The notes beneath the pieces were generated by a model. It did not search any database, was not told the DNA's origin, and saw nothing but the letters and a program-made list of their open reading frames with translations. DNA of 64,000 nt from Lytechinus pictus. Its lineage: Eukaryota. The first letter of the stretch is position 1, and each line of letters begins with the position of its first letter. The position numbers were made by a program, and so were the translations under genes. The stretch covers positions 4,094,001 through 4,158,000 of the forward strand of contig NC_087251.1 in assembly GCF_037042905.1 (NCBI RefSeq), written 5' to 3'. Shown here piece after piece: positions 24,674 through 43,652 of this stretch.

Positions 24674-26642
24674 AGGATCAAGGAGCCACTAACCCAGCCA
24701 GGCCATGGAGCTCCAGCCCGCTGGGTTAACTTAAGGAGCAGCCAGAAATCCGAGCAAAACTGGATATCAATTTCTAAGAGACCACAGATACCATGAATAT
24801 CTTCAATCAATTTTCAGGTACCGGTACCGTAAATTAGTAAAATAGGTCAGTTACCATCTACTTACATAATATAGGCCTAATCGACTTCAGAATTCGAAAA
24901 CTGCGCCAGAAACTCTGCTCTTGCTTGGCTTGTGAAAATTAGTCTACCAAAAGGCACATTTTGTCGAACTTTGAGTCAATGCTGGGGGCCAAGAAATGAG
25001 ATGGGACGTGAGGCCGTGTAAATAAAAAAGGAAATAAAATCACCATTGCCTCGCATGTTGTGTGAGTGGGTCCCGACCATGGTGCAAAGGTGAGCAGTGG
25101 AAAATTGGAAATAAGACTAATTCGCTGATGAAAACCGAAACGTACATTACCCCGCGATCTCCATGTAGGATCTGTATACCTCCAGACCATAGACTCCATG
25201 CCATGGCCTTTCTAAATACTAACTGTTAGTGTTACCAGTAGATCTACAATTGTTGCTGATTGAATGACTCCTCAATCTTCTTCTCTCGGAGTTGGAGTTG
25301 GATAGTCTAGTGCCCAATGGATCTTCATCAACTCACCAGACGTTGATTTCATTCTTCACAAACCATGTGTATGTTATTGTTAGTTGTTACTAGTACTACA
25401 TGTATCTTTTTTACTTATTTTAGGGTGTAAAAAACACGAAAATAATGAAAAAGGCCTATTTCGCCAGGAAAACTATGTGTTTACGGTCCAATTTGCGAGG
25501 GTATAAAAAGATTAAATACTTGAATAAGGATGTACTTTTTGCCCCAATATGTGTATAAAAAACTTTTTAAAGCCAAAGGGTCCGATTTGAGCAAGGTGTG
25601 TTGGGTGGTACAAAACCCAGGGAAAGTAAAGCTAAGGTAAATAAGCCGACGTCCTTAACGGGCCGGGGCTTAACCTAACAGTTAAAGTAGAACTATATTG
25701 AAAATCGTAAAAATGGAGAATCATATATCAAATTAAGGGAGAAAATAAGGAGAACACGATGGTGTAAATCATTTATCATAGAGACCGATGGAACTCAGTT
25801 AATTGATAGTTTAAAGTTCTCTCTCTGAATGCTTCAAACACGCAGAATTACGTCCGCGAAATTGGGGATTTTTTATGACGTCACTTTCTGTACGAGAGGC
25901 GTGATTGGCTCTCCAACGTGAAGCTCCACTTGCATGCAAAACCTGTTGCGAGGGTACGTTTTCTCTACATTGTCACTGAATACTTCGATCCCGAAATGAA
26001 AGAAAACCCAGAAGTTTATCTAGATTTGGATTTTCAAATTGATGATTATGAAGATGAAGAGAATGATGATGAAGTTTCTAGCTCTAGAAAAGCAAAGTGA
26101 CGTGGATAGAGGTATACATTAGGGGAATTACGCCAGTGATTATGAGTCGGATAATTCAACTTGCATGCCGATTCGCTACCAACACATGCAGCTGATAGCT
26201 GCTCCGCGGGTCAAATCCATGAAAATGGATTCCATCACGACCACATCCAGACAGAGTCTCTTTCTTTTATCAACAACATAATGAGAATGAAAATAATGAT
26301 ATAACTGTACTTACAAACAAGTGAATATATCCGAACCTAGCTAGGCTGAAGGTAAATCAACTCAAGGAATAACAGCAGACGATATGCACCGACGATGAAT
26401 TTCACGTGGCTGGGAGATTGTCACTCGTTCTGTTAGATAAAATTTCTATCTCATTATTTTGACTAAATTACGAAACTCGGAGAATAAGTATTCTACATAA
26501 AAATTAAGTAACACCTGGTACTATATTTTTTGAATTACGATAAAACCTTTTTGAAGCAAAGAAAATGAGGTGAATTAAAATTAGATATAAAAGATCATCC
26601 GCCTAGCTCGCATTCGATTGTAAACAATCAGCAAGGCGAGCA

Positions 26643-26681
26643 CATAGAGTTGGATAAAGCTACGCTTTATCCAACTCTATG
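26643..26681. mobile_element. 39-bp hairpin micro-insertion with 8-bp TSD
   Basis: GGCGAGCA|CATAGAGTTGGATAAAGC-TAC-GCTTTATCCAACTCTATG|GGCGAGCA. Confidence 0.85.
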
Positions 26682-26692
26682 GGCGAGCAAGC

Positions 26693-26726
26693 CACTGAAC
26701 TGAAAATACGTATTTTCAGTTCAGTG
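26693..26726. mobile_element. 34-bp perfect-palindrome micro-insertion with 8-bp TSD
   Basis: GAGCAAGC|CACTGAACTGAAAATACGTATTTTCAGTTCAGTG|GAGCAAGC. Confidence 0.85.
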
Positions 26727-29700
26727 GAGCAAGCTGGCCATGTGCTTTTGATTGTTTGTTTACAATCGCATGCGGCTAAGGGGATGATCCTTTATATCTT
26801 ATTTTAATTTACCTCAATTTCTTTGCTTCAAAAATATTTTATCGTAATTCAAAAAATAGTACCAGGTGTTACTTAATTTTTATGTAAAATACTAATTCTC
26901 CGAGTTTCGTAATTTAGTCAAAATAATGAGATATACATTTTATCTAACAGAACGAGTGACAATCTATTCCAGCCACGTGAAATTCATCGTCGGTGCATAT
27001 CGTCTGCTGCTATTCCTTGAGTTGATTTACCTTCAGCCTAGGTTCGGATATATATTCACTTATTTGTAAGTACAGTTATTTTATTATTTTCCTTCTCATT
27101 ATGTTGTTGATAGAGGAAAGAGACTCTGTGTGGATGTGGTCATGCTACATGGAATTCATTTTCATGGATTTGACCCGCGGTGCAGCTAGCAGCTGCATGC
27201 GTTGGTAGCGAATCGGCTTGCAAGTTGAATTGTCCTACTCATCATCACCGCCGTAATTCCCTTAATTTACCACCATCCACGTCACTTTGTTTTTCTAGAG
27301 TTAGAAACTTTATCATCATTCTCTTCATCTGCATAATCATCAATTTGAAAATCCAAATCTAGATAAACTTCTGGGTTTTCTTTCATTTCATGATCGAAGT
27401 ATTCAGTGTCAGTGTGGAGAAAACGTACCCTCGCAACAGGTTTTGCATGCAAGTGGAGCTTGACGTGGGAGAGCCAATCACGCCTCTCGTACAGACAGTG
27501 ACGTCATCAAATTCGAGTCAATTCAGAGACCGATGCGAGGCATATTTCGGAGAGGCATTTTAGCGCTTTTTAATTGGCGATTTCCACCTTATGTATTATT
27601 TTCGTTATTTTTGAATGACCTAATGGTAATCCTCACATCATTACCTCTCCACTGATATATAATAAGGCCATATTCATAATCAATATATTTCTCCTTTAAG
27701 ATATTGTTGTACTAGTTTAGGGGTTCCATTCAGGGAATACTTGTCAAGGGTACCGTTCTGTTAAATTTGTTTCCAATACTTGTTAAGGGTATAGGCCCTA
27801 GGGTTTTACACGCCAATCCTTGTTAAGGGGTGAATTTTCAGAACATGGAAAATACTTGTATAGGGTGCTTTTTGAAACCCCAAGGTCATGCATGGAATCC
27901 ACTCTGACCACTCGTCAATGGAAGTGCCACCCTTTTTTCTCTCTATTTTCAGTATTGTATTTCTTGATTTCTTTCTGTGAATTGGAAAATGAATGGATCA
28001 CTTGTGATGTATCATTTATAAAGTTATGAAATTTATGAAGCCAGATTATGCTTGTATTCACTGGAAGAAGCGATAAAAGAATACTTTAAAATAAATGATG
28101 CAGTGGCCTGACAGCCAACATTAAACTTGAGAGGGGGGTGCTGCCCGGGTTTAAAGACCATGCAAGCAGCAATTGTCACATGTCGACATTATAAGTTAGA
28201 TTTGGTTATTCCCCCAAACTGCATGTCACTATAAATATATTCCAATTCATTTCTAGATTCGATCTACATGTATATGAATGTGTATAGTGAGTGATTGTAT
28301 TACCGACCAGCCTTGTATTACAGAACACACGCATCATGTGCATTAGAAAATAATTTCATATGCTCAAGACTGCAACATCCTTCCAAAGGGAACTTGAATA
28401 AAAAGATAATGAAAAATAGTCAAAAACACATTTTCAAAGTCTTTATAAAATATGGTAAAAATAGCTCATTTTTTTTTGTTTTCTCAACTTTTCCCATAGA
28501 AAACACACACTCGGTAATACAATACCTTTTTCAAGTGACCAAAATATTTTACATGCGAAGAGGGGTCCAATTGGAAGCTGAATCGTGAAAAAGAAATACG
28601 ATTAAGTACTGCAATTTTTTTTTACATATTTATATTTTGTAGGTATTTGTGTATTTATGGTGAAAGTTTGGTGAATTTTATGAGAATAATGTGGTTGATA
28701 TGATTGAATTCATGAAAAGTGTTCGCTGATACAATCCACTACCATATGTGACCTACCACCCCAAAACCACCAATAAGTTGCCAGGTAAGGTTCTCTGTAA
28801 ATAGCCATAATAGTAATTTAATCTCCAACAACAAAAATTAGAAAAAATAGCTTATCTGAAAGAGCAATTCTTCTTTTTCATACTGTGAAAGTTTGAAGTC
28901 GTGAAGTTGAATAAAAGAAAAGATACCAGAGTTTCTTGGACACTCCTCTTTCGGACTGCTTGGAAGTTTCACTAAGATTACACAGTTTGCATATATACAT
29001 GCTGTTTTATTGGATCAATTTTACATCAAAATTTTATTTTGATCAGGTTCCTGGTCAAAATACCCCTTCTTAAGCATGGAATGGGATGAAAAAAGTAATC
29101 TTTTGTAGTTTTATTTCTAACAATATCTAATTACAAAATTTGTTAGTTCAAAGACAAATGGCTGCCTTATTTTGTATAATTTACTCTACCGGCTAAAAAA
29201 CTGGCAAATGGGACTGATGACATCACCCACTAACTATTTATTTGTATTTTATTGTATGAAATATCAATTTTCTCATTGTCATGTGAAACAAAAGTTTTAT
29301 TACATCCTGAACACATGGAATTACCTTTTTTTTTCTTTTTGGCATTCTTCGGTTCAATCAGGAGGGTCTCTTTGTCAAAAGAAATAGTGAGTGACACATT
29401 CAACTCTCTACTTTTTATAAAGCCTTTAACCTTGAAAAATATGAGAAACTGTCATACCTTTCTTATTTTACATCTGGATCCCGTTTCATAAAGACTTGTT
29501 ATTATAACAAATGTACAATTTCTATTAACAAATTTACAATTAGCCAATCACAATGAAGGATTTCTGTAGCTTTTAACTGTTATTGAAAAAAGAATTAAAT
29601 TTAATTTGTGGTTCTTAACAGTTGCTGTTCTAAAAACGCTAAAATATCAACATTAATTTTGAAAAAAATGCCACACACAGATATGCACATTTTATTGAAA

Positions 29701-29809
29701 TAGCAGAAGGTAAATCAGATACTGACTTTGGTCAGGACTGTGAAACTTTGTTTTGGTCATTCAACGATAATTGTATTTCTTAATCTACATGTAGGTGTAT
29801 AGATTGACA

Positions 29810-32800
29810 ATGTCACTGTTTAGTGGAATGAAGATCAGTGGAGGGCAGGGAGAGACGAATAAAGATGATTCAAAACCAAGGAAGGAACAGAAAGAATGCA
29901 ATGAACAATCAATATCTGCCTTTGGATTTATAAGAGACACACAACGTAAGTACAAGTATTGAAGGGTTTAAAATTATGACAGAATTATGGGAGTAAGTTA
30001 TTACTGAATGATTATGAGAAAGTAATGATTAATTTCGAAGTTACCTTGAATATGTCAGAAAATGAGAAGTGTATTGCTCCTTTGTATTTGGTACTTATAG
30101 TCAGGAATTTTAAGGTGGTGGTTTGTTGTGGGCAGCCACCAACTGCCACTTATATTCTTTTGTTTTATGCCTCTGCAACAAAAGGTGGCATAATTAGGTA
30201 ATACCTTACTTATTTTATATTTTCAATGAAAATGACATATTTTTGATCTTCTTTCAAAAGATGTAGATAAAGTCGAAAAGATTGATATTGCAGCATTTAG
30301 CAAATGCATTTTTGTCAAATAGTTGAGCTTTTGGTTTCTTTCAGAGAGCTCATCAGATTCTGCTTTATCAAGCCCACCTGCAACATCAAAGGACAAAGCA
30401 ATATCGCAGACTCTGGCAGATGATCCTGATCCATGCCAAAAGACTCGTCCTAGCCATCCATCTCCTGATGTAGTTAATGAGATAGATCTGGACGTGGACT
30501 TTGAGCTGGATCCTCTTACACCATGTTTTGACCAGAGTAGAGGACGGGCATCGCAAGGGACAGATCTTGAAGGAATTGATTTCTCCAAAGACGTTGAGGC
30601 CCTTCTAGATGAATGTAATATCAATATGAAGTCGGATGACCCTGTATACAAGGAGGATACATTTCAGGATGATCCAAGAAAATTAGATTCAGATTTAGAG
30701 ATAAAACAGGATCACAGAGACCTTGATATGAAATCATCAAATGACACTCAAGGAATGAATGAGAAGGAATTAGATACTTATGATGACCACATCAAGTGTA
30801 GTGCTATTCCAGATGACTCCCATATATCAGCAGAGCATTCCTCAAGTAGCTCAGATGCAGTAGGTGCAAAGAACCCTGATGAAGGATCAAGTTCCCTTTA
30901 TAACATTGAATTGGATTTACAAGACACATTAGAGGTTCTTCTTGAATCCCATGCAGCAAGTGAACAACAGCTCAGGTGGGAAAAGAGGAAATCAGATCAA
31001 TAATATTTTTCTAGAACAGATTATCTGAATAATAGATAGGGCTATATTGCTATTCATTCACATTATTCATATTTTATGAGAAAAAAAGACATTAATCTGA
31101 ATTTTGAAATATTGACCTCTTTGGAAAGAAGACTAGTACCATAAGAGAATGTACACGTGAAAAGGAATTATGATTGCAAAAGAATGCAAGGTTACTTTTA
31201 TTTTTGTAGTGTGAAGATTTTGTGAATAATTGCTTTTTGAAGTGAAAATGTTGACATTTTTTACTTCTACATTCTGTTTAAATTCAAATTATTAAGTAAT
31301 TTTGTGTCAAGATTGTGGAAACTTTATATTCAACAAGTACTATAGAAATGGAATCTATTATTTTGTACTATTTGCAGACTCGCAGAGGAAGTATTAAGTG
31401 AAGAACTTAATAATCTGGGAAAGGAGAGACTATGGACAATGTACAGCATGATCAAGAAACAGAGTAGACTGGATGAACTACAGGCATTACAGTCTCAGGC
31501 AATCAATGATGAAAATTATGAACAGGGTTAGTGGCAGCTAGTGAAAGATGACTCATTGAAACAGATCTATAAAATCACAGTGTCTATTGTAACCTTCCAA
31601 GTCCTCAGCTGACATACAGTGTCACAGGGAATTATTTGTACGCAATACATACTAGAAAAGGAAAAGATGAACAATGCTGGAAATAACAAAATTCCCAACC
31701 TGGCTATCATAAAATCTAATGAATTAGATGACAGAGAAGGGTATAGCCTTTGTTATTCTTGTAGACCCAAATTGTGATCAGCCATACATGAATGATTATT
31801 AATCATAATGTGATCATTCATTTTGGTGAAACACATGATGCTTCATTGATCATGATTTATATGATGTCATTTGATATCCAATTCTTAAAGCACAAGTCCA
31901 CCCCAACAAAAAGTTGATTTGAACAAACAGAGAAAAAAATCCATCAAGCATAACACTGAAAATTTCATCAAAATCAGATGTAAAATAGGAAAACTATGAC
32001 AATTTTAAGTTTTGCTCAGTTAAAAAAAACAGATATATGCACATCCTGGCTGTATGCAAATGAGGGGAATGATGATGTCATTCACTATTTCTTTTGTATT
32101 TAATTATATCAAATATGAAATATTCTAATTTTCTCCTCATTGGAAGGTGAAACAAGTTTTCTTCCTCCATGAACATGGGAAATTACAATTGTTTTAACAT
32201 TTTATGGTTCAGTCTAGCTGGTCCTTATTGTCAAATCTGTAAAAATTTAAATATCGATAATTCAAACAATAAAATACAAAACAAATAGTGAGTAAGAGAC
32301 ATCATCAACTCTCTCATTTGCACGTCACTGAGTTGTGCATAAAACTGTTTTGTGAAAAATAAGCGAAACTTTGAAATGTCATTACTTTTTTATTTTACTT
32401 CCGATTTTGATGAAATTTTCAGCGCTATTCTTGTTTGATTTTTCTGAGGTGGACTTGTCCTTTCAGTATTTCAGTTGGTATAACTTATTTTGCAAATGAT
32501 TTAGACATATATTTGACTTTGACTAGGGGTCGTGTGGTCCAGTGGTTAGAGCATTGGACTCATAATCGCAAGGTTGTGAGTTCGAATCCCAACTCTGCCA
32601 TTGTCTCCACTTTGATAAAAAGGCCCAAGAGTGATATCTGTCGTCTATTACGTCAGCCACTATGACTGATTAACCTAGACGTAAAATGTTTCCAAGATAA
32701 TTGGTTATATACCAGCTTGGCGTTTACCAGCAAAAAATGCTGTCCTGCCGAGTTCCTACGGGAGTTTCCACAAACAGAAACAGAAACTTGCCCCATTTGC

Positions 32801-35800
32801 TTTTAAAAGGTGCAATTGCATTCGTTTTTCATATTTTTTTCATTAAATTGAATAAAACAAAACAGTATCAAAGGTTTGTTTATAAATGAAATATTTTTGT
32901 TGAATAATAGAATATGTATAAATCCCTCTTAATACTAACATTTCCAAGCCAAATTCAGACACTAATAGTGAACACCCCTTTGATCTTCCAGCTGAAATTA
33001 TGACCAAAGAATGCAGTTCTTTAGAGAAAGAACTGTGTAGCATCCCTCAAGTGACTTTAGACAATGTTGTGGATGATATCTTCAGTTCCAGACACACAAT
33101 CTATGAGAAGAAGAATAGACAGAGATCGGAGTGGATTCTAGCTATCAGAGATTTACAGAACCAACAAGAAGATATCATCAGCAAAATGAAGGAGGGGAGA
33201 AGAGGAGACCCTGAGGCAAACAAACTCAAACTAGATATGCAGAAGACAGAATTGGAATGTGCTATGGGGTAAGATGGAAGGTGATCATTATGAATTTCAA
33301 ATGAATAGTTGACTTTCATTCAGAGTGGAAGTGATGTTTGTCTTAAATCTCATAAGATAATATAACAAAGACTACAAACTCCATATTTATGTTTGTTCAA
33401 TCCATATCTGCTGAAATTAGAAAATGATCATCAAAATCTCATGAATGAAAGTATGTGTACTTTTCTCATGAACTCTGAGCCATATGATGTTCTTATGTTG
33501 GGTATCATTCTTTTGTATGTAGCCATGTTTTATTGGATAAGAACCATGTTGAAAGGAGAGAGGCCCAGCTGTGGAGCAGGATTGATGAGAAGACAGCTGA
33601 TCTCAGGGATACCAAGGACAAACTTTCTCTGCAGAAAACCACAGTGCAGGTCAGTATCTTACTAGCCAGTATGGTCTGTGCCTCAAAGCCTCCTTTCAAT
33701 CTGGCTTTTTGCATGATTCCTGCTCAGTATTTATTTTTCACTTTTAATTATCTATTGTGGATTAGGAAAGCCCCTGTGAAATTCTGCATGCAGCAGAATT
33801 GATGGACACAACTTTTTTGTAGGGTACCTAATGAAAAGGTCAGAATCATAATTTCTAGTGCTATTAACTTGTCAAGGAGGATCAACCTGATTATTATAAA
33901 CATTTGAAGATAGATTACAAGTAGAATGTTTGTCTTTCATTCTTGAGAAATACATGATTATATTGAAATTGCTATTGTTATGGTTTTTGTACTAATTTTA
34001 CCTGTATTAATATGATTGTCATCAGTATGGAGCCAATTTATACAAGCTGATGTGCTTCCGTTGACCCCTCCACATGTAAAATATCTTTTAATGTCAATGT
34101 TTTGTATATGTAATTTTTTATTTTGGGAAATAAAGTTGAATTTGAATTGATGCAACGTTATGATTTAGTATCATTATATATATATATTTTCAGATGTTTT
34201 AAGTTTCTTAATTTCATTATAGTTTTGTTTTCAGTTTCGATAAAGATATTTGCTGAATATTTCTTACAGGATGAAATAGCTGCATTAGAAGAACAACTAT
34301 GTAAGTTGAGATCAGAAGAAGAGAGAATACGCTGTGAGATTGATAAACAAGATGAAGCCATTGATGAAGTCAAGGGTGAATTCTCTAAAGAAATCATGAT
34401 TATAGAAGAAGAGAAAATCAATGTGCAGGATCGTGAAGATAGACTGACTAAGGATAGGATGGCTCTAGATGAAAATGTGAAGGTGCTCAGTGCTGAGGTG
34501 AATGCATTTGATGAAGCTCTGGCCAGGTATGTATGAAAAAGTTGTCTCCTCCTGTTTCTTGGTCTGCTTTCTTCCTTTGATTCATGGGATCCATTTAGTT
34601 TTCATGTCATCAGCAACGAACGTAGAGGGCAGCAACACACGGCAGTGTTGCTATTAGGAAGGTTCACTCGATAAGTGCACGCACAATTTGGTAGGCATGC
34701 CAACCAAACCATGAACCAACACAAGACACTCGGGGATTAATAGCAAAATGGAGGTAAACTAACAGATTATGACAAGACTAGATTCAAATAATAGAAACAC
34801 AAAAATATACAAACAATTGAATAATAATGTATCACATTTTGAAATCAAGAATATTACTAAATGATTGTCTTTTTTTTTTTAAATCTTCAGTAAACAGGAT
34901 TGAATTCTGCCATTAAATAAACCAATCTGCTGATTTCACCCCGATTTAACCCAGCTCATTTTGTGACTGCTATTAAGCTCCGCCCCTCAGCACACTTTTT
35001 TAGTAGATTGTAGAGTTGATTTTTTTTTATTTCCTCATCTTCACTCGGAAGTTTTTTACATCAAATATCATGCTAAAAATATGCAATATTTATTCCTATA
35101 TTTTTCCTAAAATATTATGTGGTGGTGATAACGATTTTATGACTTTTGCATATCAATATGATATTGAAACTGGCTTTGAAACAGAGGGTCGTGGGTTCAA
35201 ATCCAGCCATGGCGTAATTTCCTTCAGCAAGAAATTTATCCACATTGTGCTGCACTCAACCCAGGTGAGGTGAATGGGTACCCGGCAGGAATAATTCCTT
35301 GAATTCACTGAGGGCTGAAAGGCATCTCGAGCTAACGCTAAAGGGTAATGATAATAACAATGCGCCTCGGTATAGATTATTTCTAGATAGATGGCGCCAT
35401 ATAAATGCCTATTATTATTATTAATATGATAACAAACATACGTGAGGTTGAACATTTTTCATCTAAATTTCGCTGCACCACATTAATGCCCCTACCTAAT
35501 CCAGCGGCAGTGCCATCGCTGAGTGTAGTGCCATGGCTGACCGCGCTGGCGCCCCGGCCGGCCGGTCGGTGCGGAGGTAGGATACGTTTGGCTGGTATTT
35601 GCATGCATGCTAACACAAATTTGAATGAAATTATAGAATGAAAATAGTAGCTGTGACATAATACTTTCGCCTCTTGATAGATCACAAGTCAAGGCCCGTC
35701 AAAACATACATGGCTCGATACTGGACCAGCTAATTTTGGTCTGTTACTTAGGTCTAACTTTAGACTAGGAGTAGGACTTATCTGGGCTTGAGCTTGGCTG

Positions 35801-38800
35801 GTGGCCGTATTCGATATCTGAGTGCCTGATGGGTTGCAGAAAAGTTGGGTCCGATATGTGGATATCACATAATAATTTTATATTTTCAGACTCCGATCTA
35901 CACTGTAAGGGAAAATTAGGATTCTAACCTTGAACATATATTGTTGCTTAACTGCTCTAGTGCCACAGCAATGACAGATCAAGTCCATGTCTGGCTAAGT
36001 CGCGTCGAAATATCCTGCCAGTCATGCTAGTGTGGCCAGCATTCCCTTTGCGCAGTACGCGCACCCGTGTGTCTCAGGAAGTTTCAGAGCAGCCATGCCA
36101 GAAGATCAAGGTATTGGCTTTGGTGTTGGCTGGTGTATTTTTGGTAGGGGCAGCGAAATTTAGCAGAAAAACGGTAATACAATGTCATCAGACTATGCAT
36201 TTTTATTGATGTGCAAACTACAAAAATCATGGTTATTTTTGGTCTTACTTTTTTTTTTAAATATGTACAACTCCTAAAATAATATTTAACATACTTTCTA
36301 GGAGTTTTCATTAACCATAAAAAATAGTAAAATTGAACAAATGAAAATAAATCAACTCTACAATCTACAAAAAAAGTGCGCTGAGTGAGGGGCGGAGCTT
36401 AAGTGGTCACAAAATCTGTGCGGAGTGGACCTTCCTAAAAGCAAGACTGCTGTGTGTTGCTGCCCTCTACATTAATTGGTCATCAGTATAATAACTCCTG
36501 CTCTATCAGTTGTACCCATATGCAAAATCCTTTCAAATATGAGGAGATGGTAACAGTTTTACTCAATATTGTTCTCTGTCTTTCTAACTATAGTGCAAAT
36601 GGTTACAACACATTTCAAAATTTGTATAAACTAACAATTCTTGTATATCAATACCTTTTATCCAGGCTGTTTAATGGGGTACCATATTAACATTTGTGGT
36701 TTTTTTCAGAGAGGAAGATCTGATGTCAAGAATTGTATTATCTCAAAACACCATCAGTTCATTGAACCAGGATAAAGAGGAAGAAGACAATGGTTGCAGT
36801 ATACCCAACTGTTCTTTAGATCTTGAACCTACTTCTAACATTACAAGGTAAGCAAGGCAGCATATGCATTTACTTTAAATTCATATTATTGGGTATACGT
36901 TGGAAGTATACTCCAGAAATTCCTAACGAGATACTTCTTATTCATGTAAGCACTGACTTGTATGTGACAGAATCTTTAAATGAAACTATGATTTTACGGT
37001 GTCATTGTTGAATATGAGATTTTTCATTAAAATAACACTGTCAAACAATAAGATATTTCATCTCAAAGAGAACCATACATTATCTGTTAATGATCCACAG
37101 TTTACGAGAGAAAGTAATGAGTAATACAGAGGAGATGCAGGCAACAAGTGCCAAGATCTTGACTGATAAAGCCAAGCTAGCAACCTTGAAGAAGAAGGTC
37201 ACTGATACTGAAGATCACATTGTAACACTGCAGGAAGCAAAGCAATTTGCTGTATCAAGTAAGTATGTTACAAGCATGGACTTTCAGTCTGAAATATATT
37301 CAGATTTAAAAAGCTCATTTTGGTACTTAAATGGGTAAACAGATACGAGTTGTGGATTGAAAATATTAGTCTGAAAGTTTCATGTTGTGATTATCATTCA
37401 TAATAAAACTACTCCTATTTTGGTTTAGTAAAAAAAATATATAAACATGTTGATACACATGTGTTTCTTTTATACTGAGAAGTGTTTCTATTTCTTGTTA
37501 TGCTTACGAGAATAAAGAGAGTTAGCAATACCTATAATCTTAATCTTGGATATGAATGAATTATATTGTGCATGTAAAGAGAGAATGATTCTATTCAATG
37601 TTGTATTTTCAGTGAGAAAATTTGGGGAGGCTAAACATTTGACAGAAGAGATTAAGATCAAGATGGATGAGGGTCATTCACACCAGACTCAGGTTGAATC
37701 TGTCTCAGAAGAACTTAAGAATCAACAAACTACACTCAATAATCAGCAGGATCAAGTGGTTAAACTCAAAATAGAACTTGCCAAGGAAGAAAAGAAATGG
37801 GGTGAGTCGAAATGGCATAGTATTATTTTCCTAGTCAGCAGAAGAAGAAAGATTGAATTGATTTTGTGATCTTAAACTCCTAAATGATAATTGTTTGTCC
37901 AGAGATGCCAACTGTTCCCTTTTTACAACATTTAATCCTTTTTAGAATAAAAGTGCCTCAGGTTTAAGAAAAATACTTTAAAAAAATCATATTATGCACA
38001 TGTCTTTTGGAGAAAGTTGAAAGTACTATTTCTTTTCACTGAATATACCTTTTAATGGGTTGGCATCCATGTTTGTCTTATGTTTTCAGAAAGCTGCTCT
38101 TTGATATTATTTTTAATGTCTAGTTTGGAAATGTGTTAAATATATAGAACAATCTTGTTTGTCCTGTATCCATACAGTGTATATATATATTTCCTTTACT
38201 GAACATCTCAGTAGTGTGTTGTTTAACAGCCTGTAGCCTCTGTTTCATTGTAAAATCATAGATTGTCACTTGTCTTTATTGATTCCATTAATTGAATTTG
38301 AGGTTATTCTTATTTAAGATGATAATTTGCTTCTGGGCTTCTGATGATGTTAAGCATTGGGGATGTTCAAAACTCCTGGTAAGAAACATGGTATCTCCCA
38401 TTTATTTTACAGAGCTTCAGCTTTGTGAGAGGGCCAAGACGATGATGGCTACGATCAGCACAGTTCTTCAGGACACAGAAACCATGAAGTCTACCTTGTC
38501 TTGCCGTAAGCTTGAAATAGAGAAGCAATCCTGTACCTTGCTGATTGGATGGCTGAGCAGACGACATGATCTTCAGATTATACCTGAGGTTTTGGCTGTG
38601 TTAGAGGAGTTCAAGGATAAAGAAGGAATGGACATAGGAGATGAAGTGAAAGACAGTCACCAACCAAAGGTATGAGATTCTATTACTCATAAATAAATGC
38701 GTTTATATTTTCAGATGTAAAATGTTGATGTGATGTTAAGATTCCCTGACATTCGCTCTGCCTATGATTTCTTTACTCATTTGGAGAATCTGCTAAAACA

Positions 38801-39825
38801 TAAAATCCATCTTATCCAAGCCCTCAGATTATTCTGAAACCAAAACCATATTAATCCTGACATCTTTAAAGACAGGAATGCTTCTCTCAGGAACAAGGGC
38901 TAGTTACTCTTGTTTGAGTTGAGATTTTGTTTTTATTAAGGGAATGAAGATCTAAGAAGAGTTAATGACGATGACAATTGAATCATACCCAGTTAGGGAT
39001 ATTTCAGATGTATGATTTCATTATTTTGTGTGTGGAGTTACAACACATCTAACAATATTTGAATGACTTACGGTTGTTTAAAGAATTGTTAGATTTCTTC
39101 TTCTTCATGAAGTTTTAATTGTTTAATTTGTGAATAAATTAAATTCAGATTAATTGCTGCAACATTCAATGATCTTGTATTTTATTTTACAGACATTGGC
39201 AAGTGCAACTGAAAGCAAATTCAGTGAAGAACTACAAGAATTGGAAGAAAATCTACAGAAAGCAATAGAGGCAGAAGATTATGATATGGCTGATATCCTT
39301 TCTATGTATGATGATAATCATTAGTACTGCAGAAAATTTATGAGGAATCATATCAATATTTCTTAATAAGTAGTTCAGATTCTTCACAAAAGAGCATTTG
39401 CAGCCCTCCTAAATTAATTAAAATCACATTTAAAATTCACTAAATCACCAGAAGTAATTTTGATATGTGAGAGAGGTTCATTGTCAGTAAAATATGTTCC
39501 AATTTTGAGCTTCAAATATTACTCATAGAAAGATATATTTTGATAATTACAATCTCTTACACATACTTGATTAGTTCTGTAGACTATGACTCAATGTGCC
39601 TTTATGCACTTGTACATTATACATACTGTATATACTTTATTTAATAAAGTTAAGCAAGATTTGTGTTCAGTATATACACATTTTCCATAGACACCTAACC
39701 TGTGATGTGAGGCACATGTCTCAATGGTTGAAAATATTTCCTACGTTTATCCTTGACTAGTATTATCACAGCATATACAGGAGAGGATTGAGAGTCTTCA
39801 AAGTCAGCAAACAGATGCAAGGTGA
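29810..39825 (+). CDS. Uncharacterised ~824-aa coiled-coil protein with three UVR-like motifs and N-terminal AP-4-ear-binding-like motifs. Exons: 29810-29945, 30345-30975, 31378-31526, 32992-33268, 33523-33649, 34270-34526, 36710-36847, 37101-37258, 37613-37801, 38413-38669, 39193-39292, 39770-39825
   Basis: All 12 exons join in frame (2475 nt) with ten GT-AG introns and one AT-AC intron. Acidic low-complexity N-terminal region, heptad-rich body, and UVR-like motifs QAINDENYEQAEIM, FAVSMRKFGEAKHL, KAIEAEDYDMAEHIQERI. Confidence 0.85.
31889..32461. mobile_element. Kolobok-type ~600-bp MITE, family A, copy 1
   Basis: TTAA|AGCACAAGTCCACCCC ... GGTGGACTTGTCCT|TTCA; same family as 43653, 58147 and 61703. 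Confidence 0.85.
32526..32787 (+). mobile_element. tRNA-derived SINE (tRNA-Met-like head)
   Basis: A-box TGGTCCAGTGG, B-box GTTCGAATC and a CTCATAA loop, but broken stems. Followed by a ~190-bp body and a (CAGAAA)n tail. Confidence 0.75.
34614..36478. mobile_element. P-superfamily-like non-autonomous transposon in intron 6 of the UVR gene
   Basis: ~55-bp TIRs CAACGAACGTAGAGGGCAGCAACACAC / GTGTGTTGCTGCCCTCTACATTAATTG with 8-bp TSD GTCATCAG (34606-34613, 36479-36486). A second inner inverted pair lies at ~34958-35020 / ~36350-36416. Confidence 0.75.
35178..35422 (+). mobile_element. 5'-truncated tRNA-SINE nested in the P-like element
   Basis: B-box GGTTCAAATCC, core CACTCAACCCAGGTG..AATGGGTACC, L2-like tail GGCGCCATATAAATGCC(TAT)n. 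Confidence 0.7.
39293..39769 (+). other. U12-type (minor spliceosome) AT-AC intron, 477 nt
   Basis: 5'ss |ATATCCTTT, branch site TCCTTGAC (39750-39757), 3'ss CAC| 13 nt after the branch A. Splicing restores the UVR motif. Confidence 0.9.
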
Positions 39826-40889
39826 CAGCAGGATATTGTTTGATGGAGGTCTCTGGAATGAAATATCAACTTTAGACTCTTTCTATGTCCTTTAAAGATA
39901 GTAAATAACAATATTTGTCCTTGAAGCTTATTGTGATAAACTGACCATTTAATGGACTATTGATTTTGCCATTGGCTTTGCAACATTCTTGTCAGAAAGG
40001 AAAATAGTCCCCATTTCATTAGACAGAGAATTTAATTTGAATACTAATATCAACAAGAGCTATAGCACCATAATATGTGTCTGAACCAGGGAGGGTGTGT
40101 GTCGTAAGCTCAATGCATACTATGGGTCTGGGACCCAATTGCACCAAGATTCCATTGCAACAAAATTACAGAGTGTGCACCAACCTACAACTCGCTGCAA
40201 TGGCGGACCACTTTGTTGCAGTAAAATGGCACACTAAATCTCAGACATTTGAAATTTCAAATCTTTCTGCAGTTTTCTGTGATTTCTGTGCTCATTTCAG
40301 CCAATCAGATTTTTCCCAGACGATGGTGTCATGGCCAATTTGCTGCGCTGTTGTAGCGCAGACGATATATGCGCAAAAGAAGAGGGGCCATAAGATGGAG
40401 CGCGCTGCAGAGCTGTTGCAATGTTTGTGTTGGTCTGCAATGCAATTGCACTGATATGAGATTGCCATTGGTAACTTTGGTTTAGTTTGTTCCAGTTGGA
40501 TCCTAGTGCAATGGCCTGGTATTGTGTATGCTGGGCTTTATACATGCACAAAGTATGGTTTACTGCTGTAGATACTTCACATTGGATTGTACTTAATTGG
40601 AGTCAAGCCAGCCATGCAGACCTGCCATTTTTTTAACTTGAAACATTGTTCATAAACACAATCATCTTTAAAGCATAGTCATTATCGACGAAACTCTTCT
40701 ATACTGCTGGATTGTTATTAAATTACATGGAAGAAGGAAATAAGCAATGTTCCATTTAAGGTTTATGTGCAATGACGTGGTGCAATTTTCGTGTAAGAGC
40801 ACAGTAAGTTTTGTATAGAACATTTCCATGGTCCTGAGTGTAAACATTTATGATGCAGTATGTGTTTAAAAACTTTCAAATATTTCATA

Positions 40890-41539
40890 TGCCCGGTTGA
40901 CACTTGCTCGCATTGTGGTGCCTGCATTGCCCCGCATTGATGCGTGCCAGTGCGGGACACTTAATGGTACGACTTTGCTATATCAGTTCACACATTGTCC
41001 CGACACGTTCACAACATGTTTGCGCATAGTTCATGCAGTGTTCACGCACTGTCCCGACGTGCTTTCAGCAAATATTCTCGACACCCTATTCTGCGACGTA
41101 TCTAGCGCAAATTTGAATATTCCAGCGTTCTGGTGATCACGTGGTCTACACTCACAACTTTGCGCATATCATTTGTGAACTATGTGTAAAGTATGCTTAG
41201 CCTATGCGCAAAGTATGCGCGACCCTGTTGTGAACTGCGTGCCACTAACCCGGGGGGGGGGGGGTCTGCCTACTACTTTTTGCACCAGGAAATTTCTATT
41301 TCGATGCCACGCAGTGGTACGCAGTGGCATGACTAAGTTGCACATAGGTTGCGCATAATTCATGAACAATTCACAAATTTGTAATGCGTGCCAAAATTTT
41401 CAACATGTTGAAAATTTTGGCACGCATTTCATGCACTGCCATGCACCTATCCGCAAGCTTGCATGCATATTTCACACATTGGTACGCATCAGTGCGTGCC
41501 CATGCGGGAACCACAATGCGTGCAAGTATTAAACGAGCT
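40890..41539. mobile_element. Harbinger-like MITE
   Basis: ~60-bp imperfect TIRs (GCCCGGTTGACACTTGCTCGCATTGTGG / CCACAATGCGTGCAAGTATTAAACGAGC); ATA on both flanks. Confidence 0.65.
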
Positions 41540-43652
41540 ATACCATTTTATTTTAATTCATTGTATCATGAAGTTTTTTTACCAAAAACTCGATATAATG
41601 AAGTTTTTGGAACTTAGATTTCTTTTTCATTGCAATAGAAAATATTTGACCTTAAATTATTGTCATATATATCTCATTGACCCTTTTCATTCTGTTATAT
41701 GTATCTTTTGTTTAAAAAAAAGTATATGAAATACTTGTTATATTATTCCAGGTTACTATCAGATATCCATTATGAGATCAGTCTATCTGAGTATTAATAC
41801 TAGAAAACCTCTGAGCTATATCTATCTAATTGCCCATAAATAGAAGTTCATGAAGTTGATTCTATATGTCTAAACTAGATTTGATTAATGGAAGTTTCCA
41901 TATATTAACTATTAGAAATTAAAAGTGCATTGGTTTTAGGTTTAAAGGCCTATTGATCCATATGAAGAGCCTGGACACAAAGAGTCTATGGTATGTCAAT
42001 GTACAGCCCTCTCTATTTGTGGCACATAGAATAACTGGATTTATTGATCACGGTCAGGTGAGATCATCAGTCACCCAGGGATGTACAGTTTTAATGGGCA
42101 ATTTTTGTGAATTTGGGTCATACAAACCTTTACAATGGGAAAGCCATTGATTTTGTATTTTTATTGTAACATTTATATAGTCGATATTCCAATGAACCAT
42201 AATAATCTAGAATTCAGCAGCACATGGATCCAGTCAGAATTAAATTATGGTAGCCTTCCTTTCCCCCAATCTTCAACCCCTTTGATAAAGAGGGTTTTTA
42301 TGTGGGGGGGGGGGGGTATATCATTTGTACGAAGAAATGTCAGTTTAGTTGTAGGTTAGAATTTAGTAAGATAAAACTTTATTAACATTTAGTAAAAACA
42401 AAATGGCCTTGGTTTTTTTTCCTCACCAAAGCCTCACTCTTTTTTTTTATTATATGTACCTCAAAGTTATTTATGTCATGCACTGTTTATTCTTCTTATA
42501 TGGTAAAGTCATCTCACTCTCAAGGAGAAGAGTGTCTTGCTGGGACAACAATTTGCTTGCTCTTCTATAAAGTGTAACTTTATTTTCCTCTTCTGTTTAC
42601 AATTCTATGGTCGGAAATTTGTAATCCTTTTCTCATTACAGTTTAATGTTATATATCTGGGAAACATCTATGCAATAATAAAGATCTGAAATGTAAGGGT
42701 AATTGTTTGTTTCAAAATAAGATTAATTTTCTTTGATTTCTTACATCTTTAAGCTCGTTATCAACTGCCATGTTTTTTTAAGCCAATAATATTGCCATTA
42801 ATAATGTTTAATGATAGTTTACATGTAATTAAATAAGATCTAGAATAAATAAATGTTAGAATTGAACCTTGGGTAAGTATATTGTGATGTTTGAGATGTG
42901 CATGTCAACTCCAGCAATTCCAAAGCCAATGCATGTGTGCGTATGTATATGATTATTTATGTCTTGGGCTGACCTTTAACTTCACCATCTGAAAGATGTG
43001 ACCAGAGCTAGAACCTCTGCATCATCTAATAACTTTCCCATGCATCTTGGATTACAAGTGCACGCCACAACAACCAGCCAGATTCACCTACAGTAACTAA
43101 TCAATGTAATAAACAACAGTGAAATTTGAATTCATTAAATTAAAATTTTAAGCCTTTGGAAATGCTATTTTCATTGACAATGTGACATGCACAAATGCAG
43201 TGAGTGATTAAAATACAGTCGAATCTATCACCTGTGTAGAAAGACTACCCAATTATAAATACTACAAACTGTGTTTCCATTCAGTAGTATTCTCAATGAA
43301 TTACATGAACCTATTTAAAAAGACCATCTGCTCATAAAAAACACTTTTGTTCTATCGAAAGCTTAGTATTTATTAAAAGAAAAGTTCCACTGTATTACAC
43401 ATTTCAAAGAGAAAAAATTACAATAACAAGCACTCGATGTGATATATATTGCAATTATCATGAACATGTAATACATATCAACATGTATGAAACAAGGCAA
43501 CCACTCCCCACCCCCCCCCCCCAACAAAAAATTTCTAACTTATTCTTTTGTCTGATTTCAAAGCTTATCACTGTTTTATTTGGCTTTCCATATTAATTCC
43601 TTGACAGGTTTCAGAAGAAATGTTGGGTTTGATTGTCACAAACTGTTATTAA

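Follow-up and report, generated by a model that had tools for sequence, protein, structure and literature searches.

A gene on the forward strand of the sea urchin Lytechinus pictus, located in the 64,000-nucleotide stretch of DNA analysed here (the window: contig NC_087251.1, positions 4,094,001 to 4,158,000), is, with very little room for doubt, the sea-urchin orthologue of DISC1 as judged by sequence comparison, and its N-terminal tail carries two short motifs that are very probably functional. The motifs, SLFSGMKI and SAFGFI, resemble the two by which the accessory protein tepsin binds the adaptor complex AP-4. Bivalent docking of this pair on AP-4 appears to be the single most likely mechanism, and we give it not quite an even chance.

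Work on DISC1 over two decades has treated it as a scaffold linked to psychiatric risk, and we know of no agreed core cellular function for it. The family, its UVR repeats and its wide spread among eukaryotes are already known. According to PMC13273187, the DISC1 core seen by cryo-electron microscopy is a homotetramer formed from UVR dimers, homologues with the same UVR dimer occur in Opisthokonta, Plantae and Excavates, residues Y371 and F598 are absolutely conserved, and the C-terminal module binds NDE1/NDEL1, of which NDE1 is a dynein regulator bound by mammalian DISC1; the N-terminal region is there termed poorly conserved, and AP-4 and adaptors have 0 mentions. DISC1 homologues occur in plants (PMC4046923). 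No literature linking DISC1 to AP-4 or tepsin was found among the matches listed. AP-4 deficiency leads to severe childhood neurological disease, and very few AP-4 accessory proteins are known (PMC7185972, PMC6627992).

Searches were made with stand-ins for the 824-residue chain of the window, namely single exons, the NCBI model P0001 (identical over residues 1-806) and the L. variegatus protein P0002 (identical over the last 56 residues). Exon 4 retrieved P0001 at 100% identity, under the NCBI name 'disrupted in schizophrenia 1 protein-like [Lytechinus pictus]', as well as P0002 at 92% identity. When sequences of the PDB were searched with phmmer, the best match was mouse DISC1 (9rux_A, E 1.5e-5), aligned over the middle UVR hairpin. 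An exhaustive HMMER search with P0002 as query against 1.84 billion representative sequences gave 51 matches at E <=0.001, 27 at <=1e-10 and 9 at <=1e-30. Thirty matches were named, echinoderms, hemichordates, amphioxus, cnidarians, sponges, Monosiga, Pigoraptor, Vitrella and Andalucia among them, and DISC1-named proteins of Latimeria, Protopterus and Strix are also found among the 51. Finally, an alignment of ten invertebrate-deuterostome sequences (A1) was matched by hhalign to one of six vertebrate DISC1-type sequences (A4) with 99.94% probability (E 1.4e-36); the 461 aligned columns reach from the first UVR hairpin to that at the C-terminus. It is because of the NCBI name, the match to 9rux, the vertebrate proteins retrieved by HMMER and the hhalign result that we assign the gene to DISC1. 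An earlier note on this DNA, made from the sequence alone, had recognised no vertebrate orthologue and had proposed a new tether; both statements have to be withdrawn, given that the protein belongs to a known and much-studied family.

The sea-urchin protein and vertebrate DISC1 share homology over the whole span between the first and the C-terminal hairpin, a disordered N-terminal region with an S-x-F-x-F-I motif, and aromatic residues at the hairpin turns that match Y371 and F598 as described in PMC13273187. They differ in that identity in the core is only about 20%, that nothing in the sea-urchin protein matches the basic KKLxKRPGY stretch invariant in vertebrates, and that the sea-urchin C-terminal hairpin is still recognisable as a UVR motif. 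In comparison with the tetrapod-type DISC1 of our sample, the sea-urchin protein keeps the N-terminal LFxGM motif. TSNAX, which we take to adjoin DISC1 in vertebrates, was also looked for; the nearest Translin-family match (G000:C7:10511826-10514095) lies on the same contig at a distance of 6.4 Mb and gives no support to a conserved TSNAX-DISC1 synteny.

The window is AT-rich (GC about 0.28-0.42) and belongs to an assembly of 812 Mb. Transcript evidence came from the contig sets X1 and X15 and from the RNA-seq runs X19 and X20, the latter two as raw reads. On the + strand, the stop-to-stop frame at 29795-29962 runs from VYRLTMSLFSGMKI to SISAFGFIRDTQ, has the translation VYRLTM-SLFSGMKI... and ends with a GTAAGT donor. 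Exons joined on the RNA joints give a gene of 12 exons with 824 open codons, from the ATG at 29810 to the end of the stop codon at 39825, which is the same chain that the earlier note had modelled. All 11 coding introns are backed by RNA, each by one contig of X1, one of X15 and 1-18 reads in X19 and X20; joint 29945>30345, for example, is crossed by 9 reads of X19 and 11 of X20, and joint 39292>39770 by 6 and 9, respectively. The first mate lies on the minus strand in all spliced reads, which fits + strand RNA in a stranded library.

Upstream of the first coding exon, joint 25369>29795 is crossed by 10 X19 reads with 7 extra letters in between, and it leads to a non-coding 5' exon. The region of this exon (25000-25368) has the highest GC of the window (0.422) and no long open reading frame (ORF). 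In the upstream-spliced transcript, with the 7 extra letters included, an in-frame TGA stands seven codons 5' of the ATG, and 29810 is therefore the coding start. Exon 29795-29945, which had been taken for exon 1, accordingly retains its place as the start of coding and loses that of the first exon. One base of the same exon differs between RNA and assembly: at 29846 all reads have A (18/18 in X19, 9/9 in X20) in place of the C of the assembly, so that codon 13 specifies K and not Q. The site is outside the motifs, K is also found at residue 13 of the L. variegatus protein, and the difference is a polymorphism or a strain difference.

Both motifs are encoded in the first coding exon, as the earlier note had stated, with SAFGFI 33 residues after SLFSGMKI in the N-terminal tail, of roughly 220 residues, of the 824-residue protein. 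Residues 46-235 are acidic and serine-rich, with 45 D+E as against 17 K+R, and 28 S, in 190 residues. An AlphaFold2 model was obtained for the congener protein P0002, which is 93% identical to P0001 and was placed as the first of 21 aligned sequences. In this model pLDDT is <50 over residues 3-219, and the chain is all helix from residue 225 on, with pLDDT >=90 at 337 residues. Three tight hairpin turns are formed at 288-290, 613-615 and 788-790 (300-302, 625-627 and 800-802 in the numbering of the window protein), and each is directly followed by a conserved aromatic residue, Y303, F628 or Y803. The middle one is invariant in the 21 sequences (F616 in P0002; F628 in alignment A1) and Y803 is nearly invariant in A1. 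Conserved aromatic residues at the turns of UVR-like hairpins (CC1-UVR and CC3-UVR) are a feature of the DISC1 family. The Pfam UVR profile scores 23.0 bits on the C-terminal hairpin of P0002, above its cut-off of 21.5, and falls below the cut-off on exons 3 and 11 of the window (Table 1), each of which is cut by an intron and has only half a hairpin. Composition, model and profile together bear out the acidic disordered linker, the coiled coil and the three UVR-like hairpins that had been read from the sequence, and place both motifs in the disordered tail.

A Foldseek comparison of the P0002 model with the PDB (to 2026-04-08, a release that may lack 9rux) gave 0 matches at E <=0.001, and its top rows are unrelated long helical proteins. 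The hairpins resemble the UVR motif of UvrB and UvrC (Pfam PF02151) in being helical hairpins with an acidic-aromatic turn; unlike those of UvrB and UvrC, they sit inside the long coiled coils of a eukaryotic scaffold, with no link to nucleotide excision repair. In the linker, two stretches of exon 2 (30345-30700), D-[LM]-D-[VL]-D-F-E-L-D-P-L and D-L-E-G-I-D-F-S, are common to sea urchins and occur in relaxed form in starfish and amphioxus; from their sequence they may be further short linear motifs.

The case that the N-terminal motifs are functional is made by their recurrence. They were counted in 36 of the 51 HMMER matches, namely those of >=500 aa, with 14 shorter proteins and the 4429-aa P0017 dropped, using the patterns [LMF]F.G[ML].[LVIF] for motif 1 and [ST][SAVG]F.F[ILV] for motif 2. 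Motif 1 was present in 17/36 homologues, motif 2 in 22/36, both in 13/36 and either in 26/36, as compared with means of 0.10 and 0.11 (maxima 2 and 1) in 300 shuffles of the same proteins. No match falls outside the N-terminal part, motif 1 comes ahead of motif 2 in 13/13 proteins, and in most animal sequences motif 1 is at the extreme N-terminus. Named carriers are Diadema, Patiria, Apostichopus, Ptychodera, Saccoglossus, Branchiostoma, Antedon, Nematostella, Hydractinia, Sycon, Oscarella, Monosiga, Pigoraptor, Vitrella and Andalucia, so that the motifs span animals, a choanoflagellate, an alveolate and a jakobid. Conservation in orthologues, which the earlier note had proposed as a check, is thus found out to very distant homologues.

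Residues F4, G6 and M7 are invariant in alignment A1, in which the N-terminal tail is unalignable outside the motifs. Serine precedes LF in 12/17 instances of motif 1, a position that the pattern does not fix and that fits the [GS] given for tepsin in the earlier note. For motif 2 there are 32 instances in the family, with S between the two F in 20/32, L in 10/32 and N after the motif in 3/32. In the vertebrate alignment S212, F214, S215, F216 and I217 are invariant by alignment and not by pattern, in a region that is otherwise poorly alignable. SAFGFI is the counterpart of the vertebrate DISC1 SSFSFI, and an F-x-x-I core of the kind found in ATG8/LC3-interacting regions (LIRs) lies inside it.

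A likeness of the tail to tepsin was the substance of the earlier note. The epsilon-ear motif of tepsin is S[AV]F[SA]FLN. SAFGFIR agrees with it exactly at 4/7 places, with I for L as a conservative fifth, and the family consensus S-[AS]-F-[SG]-F-[IL] fits its six core places, only the final N being missing. Tepsin binds AP-4 by two motifs of an unstructured tail, one for each appendage (PMC11064669, PMC6627992), and its beta4-ear motif is LFxG[M/L]x[L/V] (PMC13335578), which SLFSGMKI fits save for the I at the last place. The two proteins are alike in having two short motifs in a disordered tail, in the same order that the earlier note gives for tepsin. They are not homologous, tepsin consisting of ENTH and VHS-like domains (PMC11064669) and the sea-urchin protein of a UVR coiled coil; the motifs are C-terminal in tepsin and N-terminal here; and AP-4 binding, demonstrated for tepsin, is a prediction for the sea-urchin protein. 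A possible functional analogy is offered by the FTS-Hook-FHIP (FHF) complex, an AP-4 accessory of coiled-coil type through which carriers are linked to dynein (PMC7185972), in that both would be coiled-coil adaptors between AP-4 carriers and dynein regulators. FHF grips mu4 by its coiled coils (PMC7185972), unlike the ear binding by short motifs considered here, and no homology is expected.

The genome of L. pictus encodes the AP-4 subunits that such binding would call for, co-occurrence with AP-4 being one of the checks proposed in the earlier note. An AP4E appendage exon and the protein P0075 represent epsilon, and an exon reached by way of Adaptin_N matches the AP-4 beta1 of L. variegatus (P0077) at 98%. 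The Pfam profile B2-adapt-app_C, run over the genome, found only the AP-1/2 beta appendage. For tepsin, Pfam ENTH over the genome gave only two genes above the cut-off, and a search of 40 kb around each of three weak candidates found no motif-bearing coding exon. A complex prediction for the beta4 appendage (P0077 760-882) with residues 1-50, run without alignments or controls, gave a score of 0.01 and a mark of 0.34, and we have counted it neither way. Residues 670-675 of the beta4 hinge of P0077 read GSFSFL, which is motif-2-like; this is kept in 0/2 of the species compared (S. purpuratus, Diadema) and is for that reason probably incidental.

Tepsin is an ancient protein whose loss accompanied that of AP-4 in yeast, worms and flies (PMC3317806), and the fly genome is without a DISC1 homologue (PMC11352338). 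Losses of AP-4 are also recorded in most fungi, some kinetoplastids, diplomonads and red algae, and among fungi a complete AP-4 is reported only from Rhizophagus, with none in the sampled Mucoromycotina (PMC4022609). None of the named carriers of DISC1 homologues belongs to the loss lineages listed in that paper. In the ESM Atlas, further UVR clusters are commonest in Streptophyta, and one chordate cluster is named 'DISC1 scaffold protein'. The mention of plant UVR/coiled-coil proteins in the earlier note agrees with the Streptophyta-rich clusters and with PMC4046923, an agreement at the level of cluster and literature.

We suggest the following mechanism. The helical core would form a tetrameric hub through UVR-UVR dimers, as extrapolated from the structure of mouse DISC1 (PMC13273187), and would present four tails. 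On each, motif 1 would dock on the beta4 appendage of AP-4 and motif 2 on the epsilon appendage, in the manner of the two motifs of tepsin, and the multivalent DISC1 hub would in this way be recruited to AP-4-coated trans-Golgi carriers. It could then couple these carriers to other clients, for example the dynein regulators NDE1/NDEL1, which are known partners of DISC1 in mammals. A second role of motif 2 may be that of an ATG8/LC3-binding LIR, as reported in human DISC1, and this would fit the role of AP-4 carriers in the delivery of ATG9A.

Several observations weigh against an AP-4 partner. Motif 2 departs from the epsilon motif at three places (G for S/A, I for L, R for N). The patterns used for counting fixed the F, G and hydrophobic places, so that tables of instances, such as that in which the last place of motif 1 is L, I, V or F over the 17 instances, overstate conservation there. 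Neither motif was found in 10/36 homologues (P0007, P0013, P0019, P0020, P0021, P0026, P0028, P0035, P0041 and P0044), including a jellyfish protein and one amphioxus model. Of these P0007 begins inside the first UVR, P0044 has SKFSFI, which is outside the pattern, and P0041 clusters with bacterial-type names; some of the ten may be truncated models or unrelated coiled coils. The tetrapod-type DISC1 in the sample is without motif 1, and the coelacanth protein still starts MFAGM; the beta4 half of the interaction, if real, is therefore not universal. The nearest UVR cluster of the ESM Atlas is commonest in Mucoromycota and could become a counter-example. The main text of an Arabidopsis AP interactome preprint has 0 occurrences of 'UVR' and 0 of 'DISC1'.

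The strongest rival, and a further point on that side, is that the motifs of the same DISC1 orthologue are ATG8/LC3-interacting regions of a selective-autophagy receptor or scaffold, a role proposed for human DISC1 in mitophagy, and that the likeness to tepsin is the general similarity of small hydrophobic peptide ligands. It has experimental support in one species: human DISC1 210-FSFI-213 is reported in PMC6351828 to bind LC3 by co-immunoprecipitation and peptide ELISA, the LC3-binding peptide being DISC1 200-219, and a quadruple-alanine FSFI mutant loses LC3 binding and mitophagy activity. SAFGFI contains the LIR core [W/F/Y]-x-x-[L/I/V] as F38-G-F-I41, in a disordered region, and E32, S34 and S36 supply the acidic or phosphorylatable residues that the LIR definition quoted in PMC6351828 places upstream. 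The beta4 motif of tepsin itself overlaps a predicted LC3B site (PMC13335578), and LFxGM-type peptides may therefore also fit ATG8 pockets. A minimal LIR nevertheless leaves several conserved features unexplained: the second F and the serine at the second position ahead of the first F, both invariant in vertebrates; in motif 1, the strict LF-x-G-[ML] core; and the order of the two motifs, which is the same in 13/13 proteins. Moreover, the LC3 evidence comes from one laboratory and the human protein only. LIR function and ear binding are compatible and both may hold, and as a reading opposed to AP-4 we consider the LIR account rather unlikely.

Somewhat less probable again, to our mind, is that the motifs are functional and serve another conserved partner, either an AP-1 gamma/GGA-type appendage or GAE domain or a client specific to DISC1, the likeness to AP-4 ligands being convergent. 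Short hydrophobic motifs do recur by convergence. Ligands of the gamma ear have a bare F-x-x-hydrophobic core in an acidic context; F-G-F-I fits the core, but the acidic context is absent before F38. The N-terminal region of DISC1 is said to hold motifs for known binders (PMC13273187), and no AP-4 proteomic study with DISC1 was found among the matches listed. Such a partner would leave it to coincidence that two different motifs, each like one of the AP-4 motifs of tepsin, occur in the same order, and that DISC1 was lost with AP-4 in flies. That the likeness is a matter of chance or composition in a serine/phenylalanine-rich tail, without function, is effectively excluded. The tail is indeed of low complexity and serine-rich, and a crude background, some 240,000 codons read in six frames from unrelated DNA of the same genome, holds 2 matches to motif 1 and 8 to motif 2, none of them in a coding-like setting; against this stand the 17/36 and 22/36 homologues, as opposed to about 0.1 in shuffles, and the fact that animals, a choanoflagellate, an alveolate and a jakobid all retain the motifs in a tail that is otherwise unalignable. 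Recurrence far above shuffles, together with the fixed order, makes AP-4 binding a serious hypothesis.

The 3' end of the gene contains an AT-AC intron of the U12 type, and here the public model requires correction. The NCBI model P0001 (816 aa) equals the RNA-based model over residues 1-806 and then reads through this intron, so that it ends ...DILSMYDDNH in place of the RNA-supported ...EHIQERIESLQSQQTDAR. The last 56 residues of the RNA-based model are identical to those of L. variegatus P0002 (812 aa). Because the U12 intron has been read through, the C-terminus of P0001 is wrong. In the models of Diadema, Ptychodera and Saccoglossus the break falls in the same column of the alignment, where they read DIF.., HIL.. 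and DIL.., respectively. This is what the read-through of a ATATCCTT-type donor would encode, and from these sequences the U12 intron therefore seems to be conserved, and systematically mis-annotated, in ambulacrarian DISC1-like genes.

Table 1. Splice joints, exons and motifs of the DISC1 gene in the window. Joints are given at the coordinates at which they were listed; 'cut' is the shift that brings a joint onto GT..AG borders.
Feature	Position	Strand	Remarks
Joint	29945>30345	+	no cut; GT..AG
Joint	30972>31375	+	cut +3
Joint	31525>32991	+	cut +1
Joint	33267>33522	+	cut +1
Joint	33646>34267	+	cut +3
Joint	34523>36707	+	cut +3
Joint	36845>37099	+	cut +2
Joint	37258>37613	+	no cut
Joint	37800>38412	+	cut +1
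Joint	38667>39191	+	cut +2
Joint	39292>39770	+	no cut; AT..AC
Non-coding 5' exon	25000..25368	+	X15 contig; spliced to 29795; 5' end at or before 25000
First coding exon	29795..29945	+	ATG 29810; residues 1-45; end phase 1
Motif 1, SLFSGMKI, residues 2-9	29813..29836	+	
Motif 2, SAFGFI, residues 36-41	29915..29932	+	
Exon 2, acidic serine-rich disordered linker, residues 46-255	30345..30975	+	
Exon 3, start of helical body and first arm of UVR hairpin 1	31378..31526	+	Pfam UVR 15.5 bits
Exon 4, second arm of UVR hairpin 1 and next helix	32992..33268	+	100% identical to P0001
Exon 5, coiled coil	33523..33649	+	
Exon 6, coiled coil	34270..34526	+	
Exon 7, loop and helix	36710..36847	+	
Exon 8, first arm of UVR hairpin 2 (DISC1 CC3-UVR equivalent)	37101..37258	+	aligned to mouse DISC1 9rux
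Exon 9, second arm of UVR hairpin 2	37613..37801	+	F628, E630, A631, K632 invariant
Exon 10, helices and linker	38413..38669	+	
Exon 11, first arm of UVR hairpin 3	39193..39292	+	Pfam UVR 16.2 bits
U12-type AT-AC intron	39293..39769	+	donor ATATCCTT; branch-site-like TCCTTGAC 12 nt before AC
Last exon, second arm of UVR hairpin 3, stop codon and 3' UTR	39770..41070	+	stop 39823-39825; 3' UTR to at least 41070 (X1 contig)

Some repeats were seen within and near the gene. Two intronic segments, 31611-32812 and 34616-35817, have very high RNA and contig depth (word depth to about 24,000, with hundreds of reads), and many loose ends in them resemble a tRNA end (GGGTCGTGGGTTCGAATC); they are probably an abundant tRNA-derived repeat. 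ARAGORN and Rfam, run over 25000-43000, found nothing. Between the 5' exon and the first coding exon, near-identical open frames of 73 aa with the acidic end ...EVYLDLDFQIDDY.DEENDD... lie in inverted orientation at 25879-26100 (+) and 27282-27503 (-), and are probably two repeat copies.

As a hypothesis drawn from sequence, the AP-4 idea survives the checks that were run, with strong comparative support for functional motifs and a published competitor for one of the two. Should it fail, the gene is still an ordinary and identifiable DISC1 orthologue, and its public model still needs a corrected C-terminus. A broader proposal, to which we give rather less than an even chance, is that DISC1 was ancestrally an AP-4 accessory: a tetrameric UVR hub whose LFxGM and SxFxF[IL] motifs would bind beta4 and epsilon and link AP-4/ATG9A carriers to motor regulators and ATG8, conserved eukaryote-wide but in part lost from tetrapods, which have given up motif 1 and kept FSFI. 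If the two N-terminal motifs are indeed AP-4 ear ligands, an ancient function open to test, in the traffic of trans-Golgi and ATG9A carriers, could be assigned to DISC1, AP-4 would acquire a multivalent hub as partner, and the LC3-binding FSFI of human DISC1 would need to be re-examined as a possible dual ligand.

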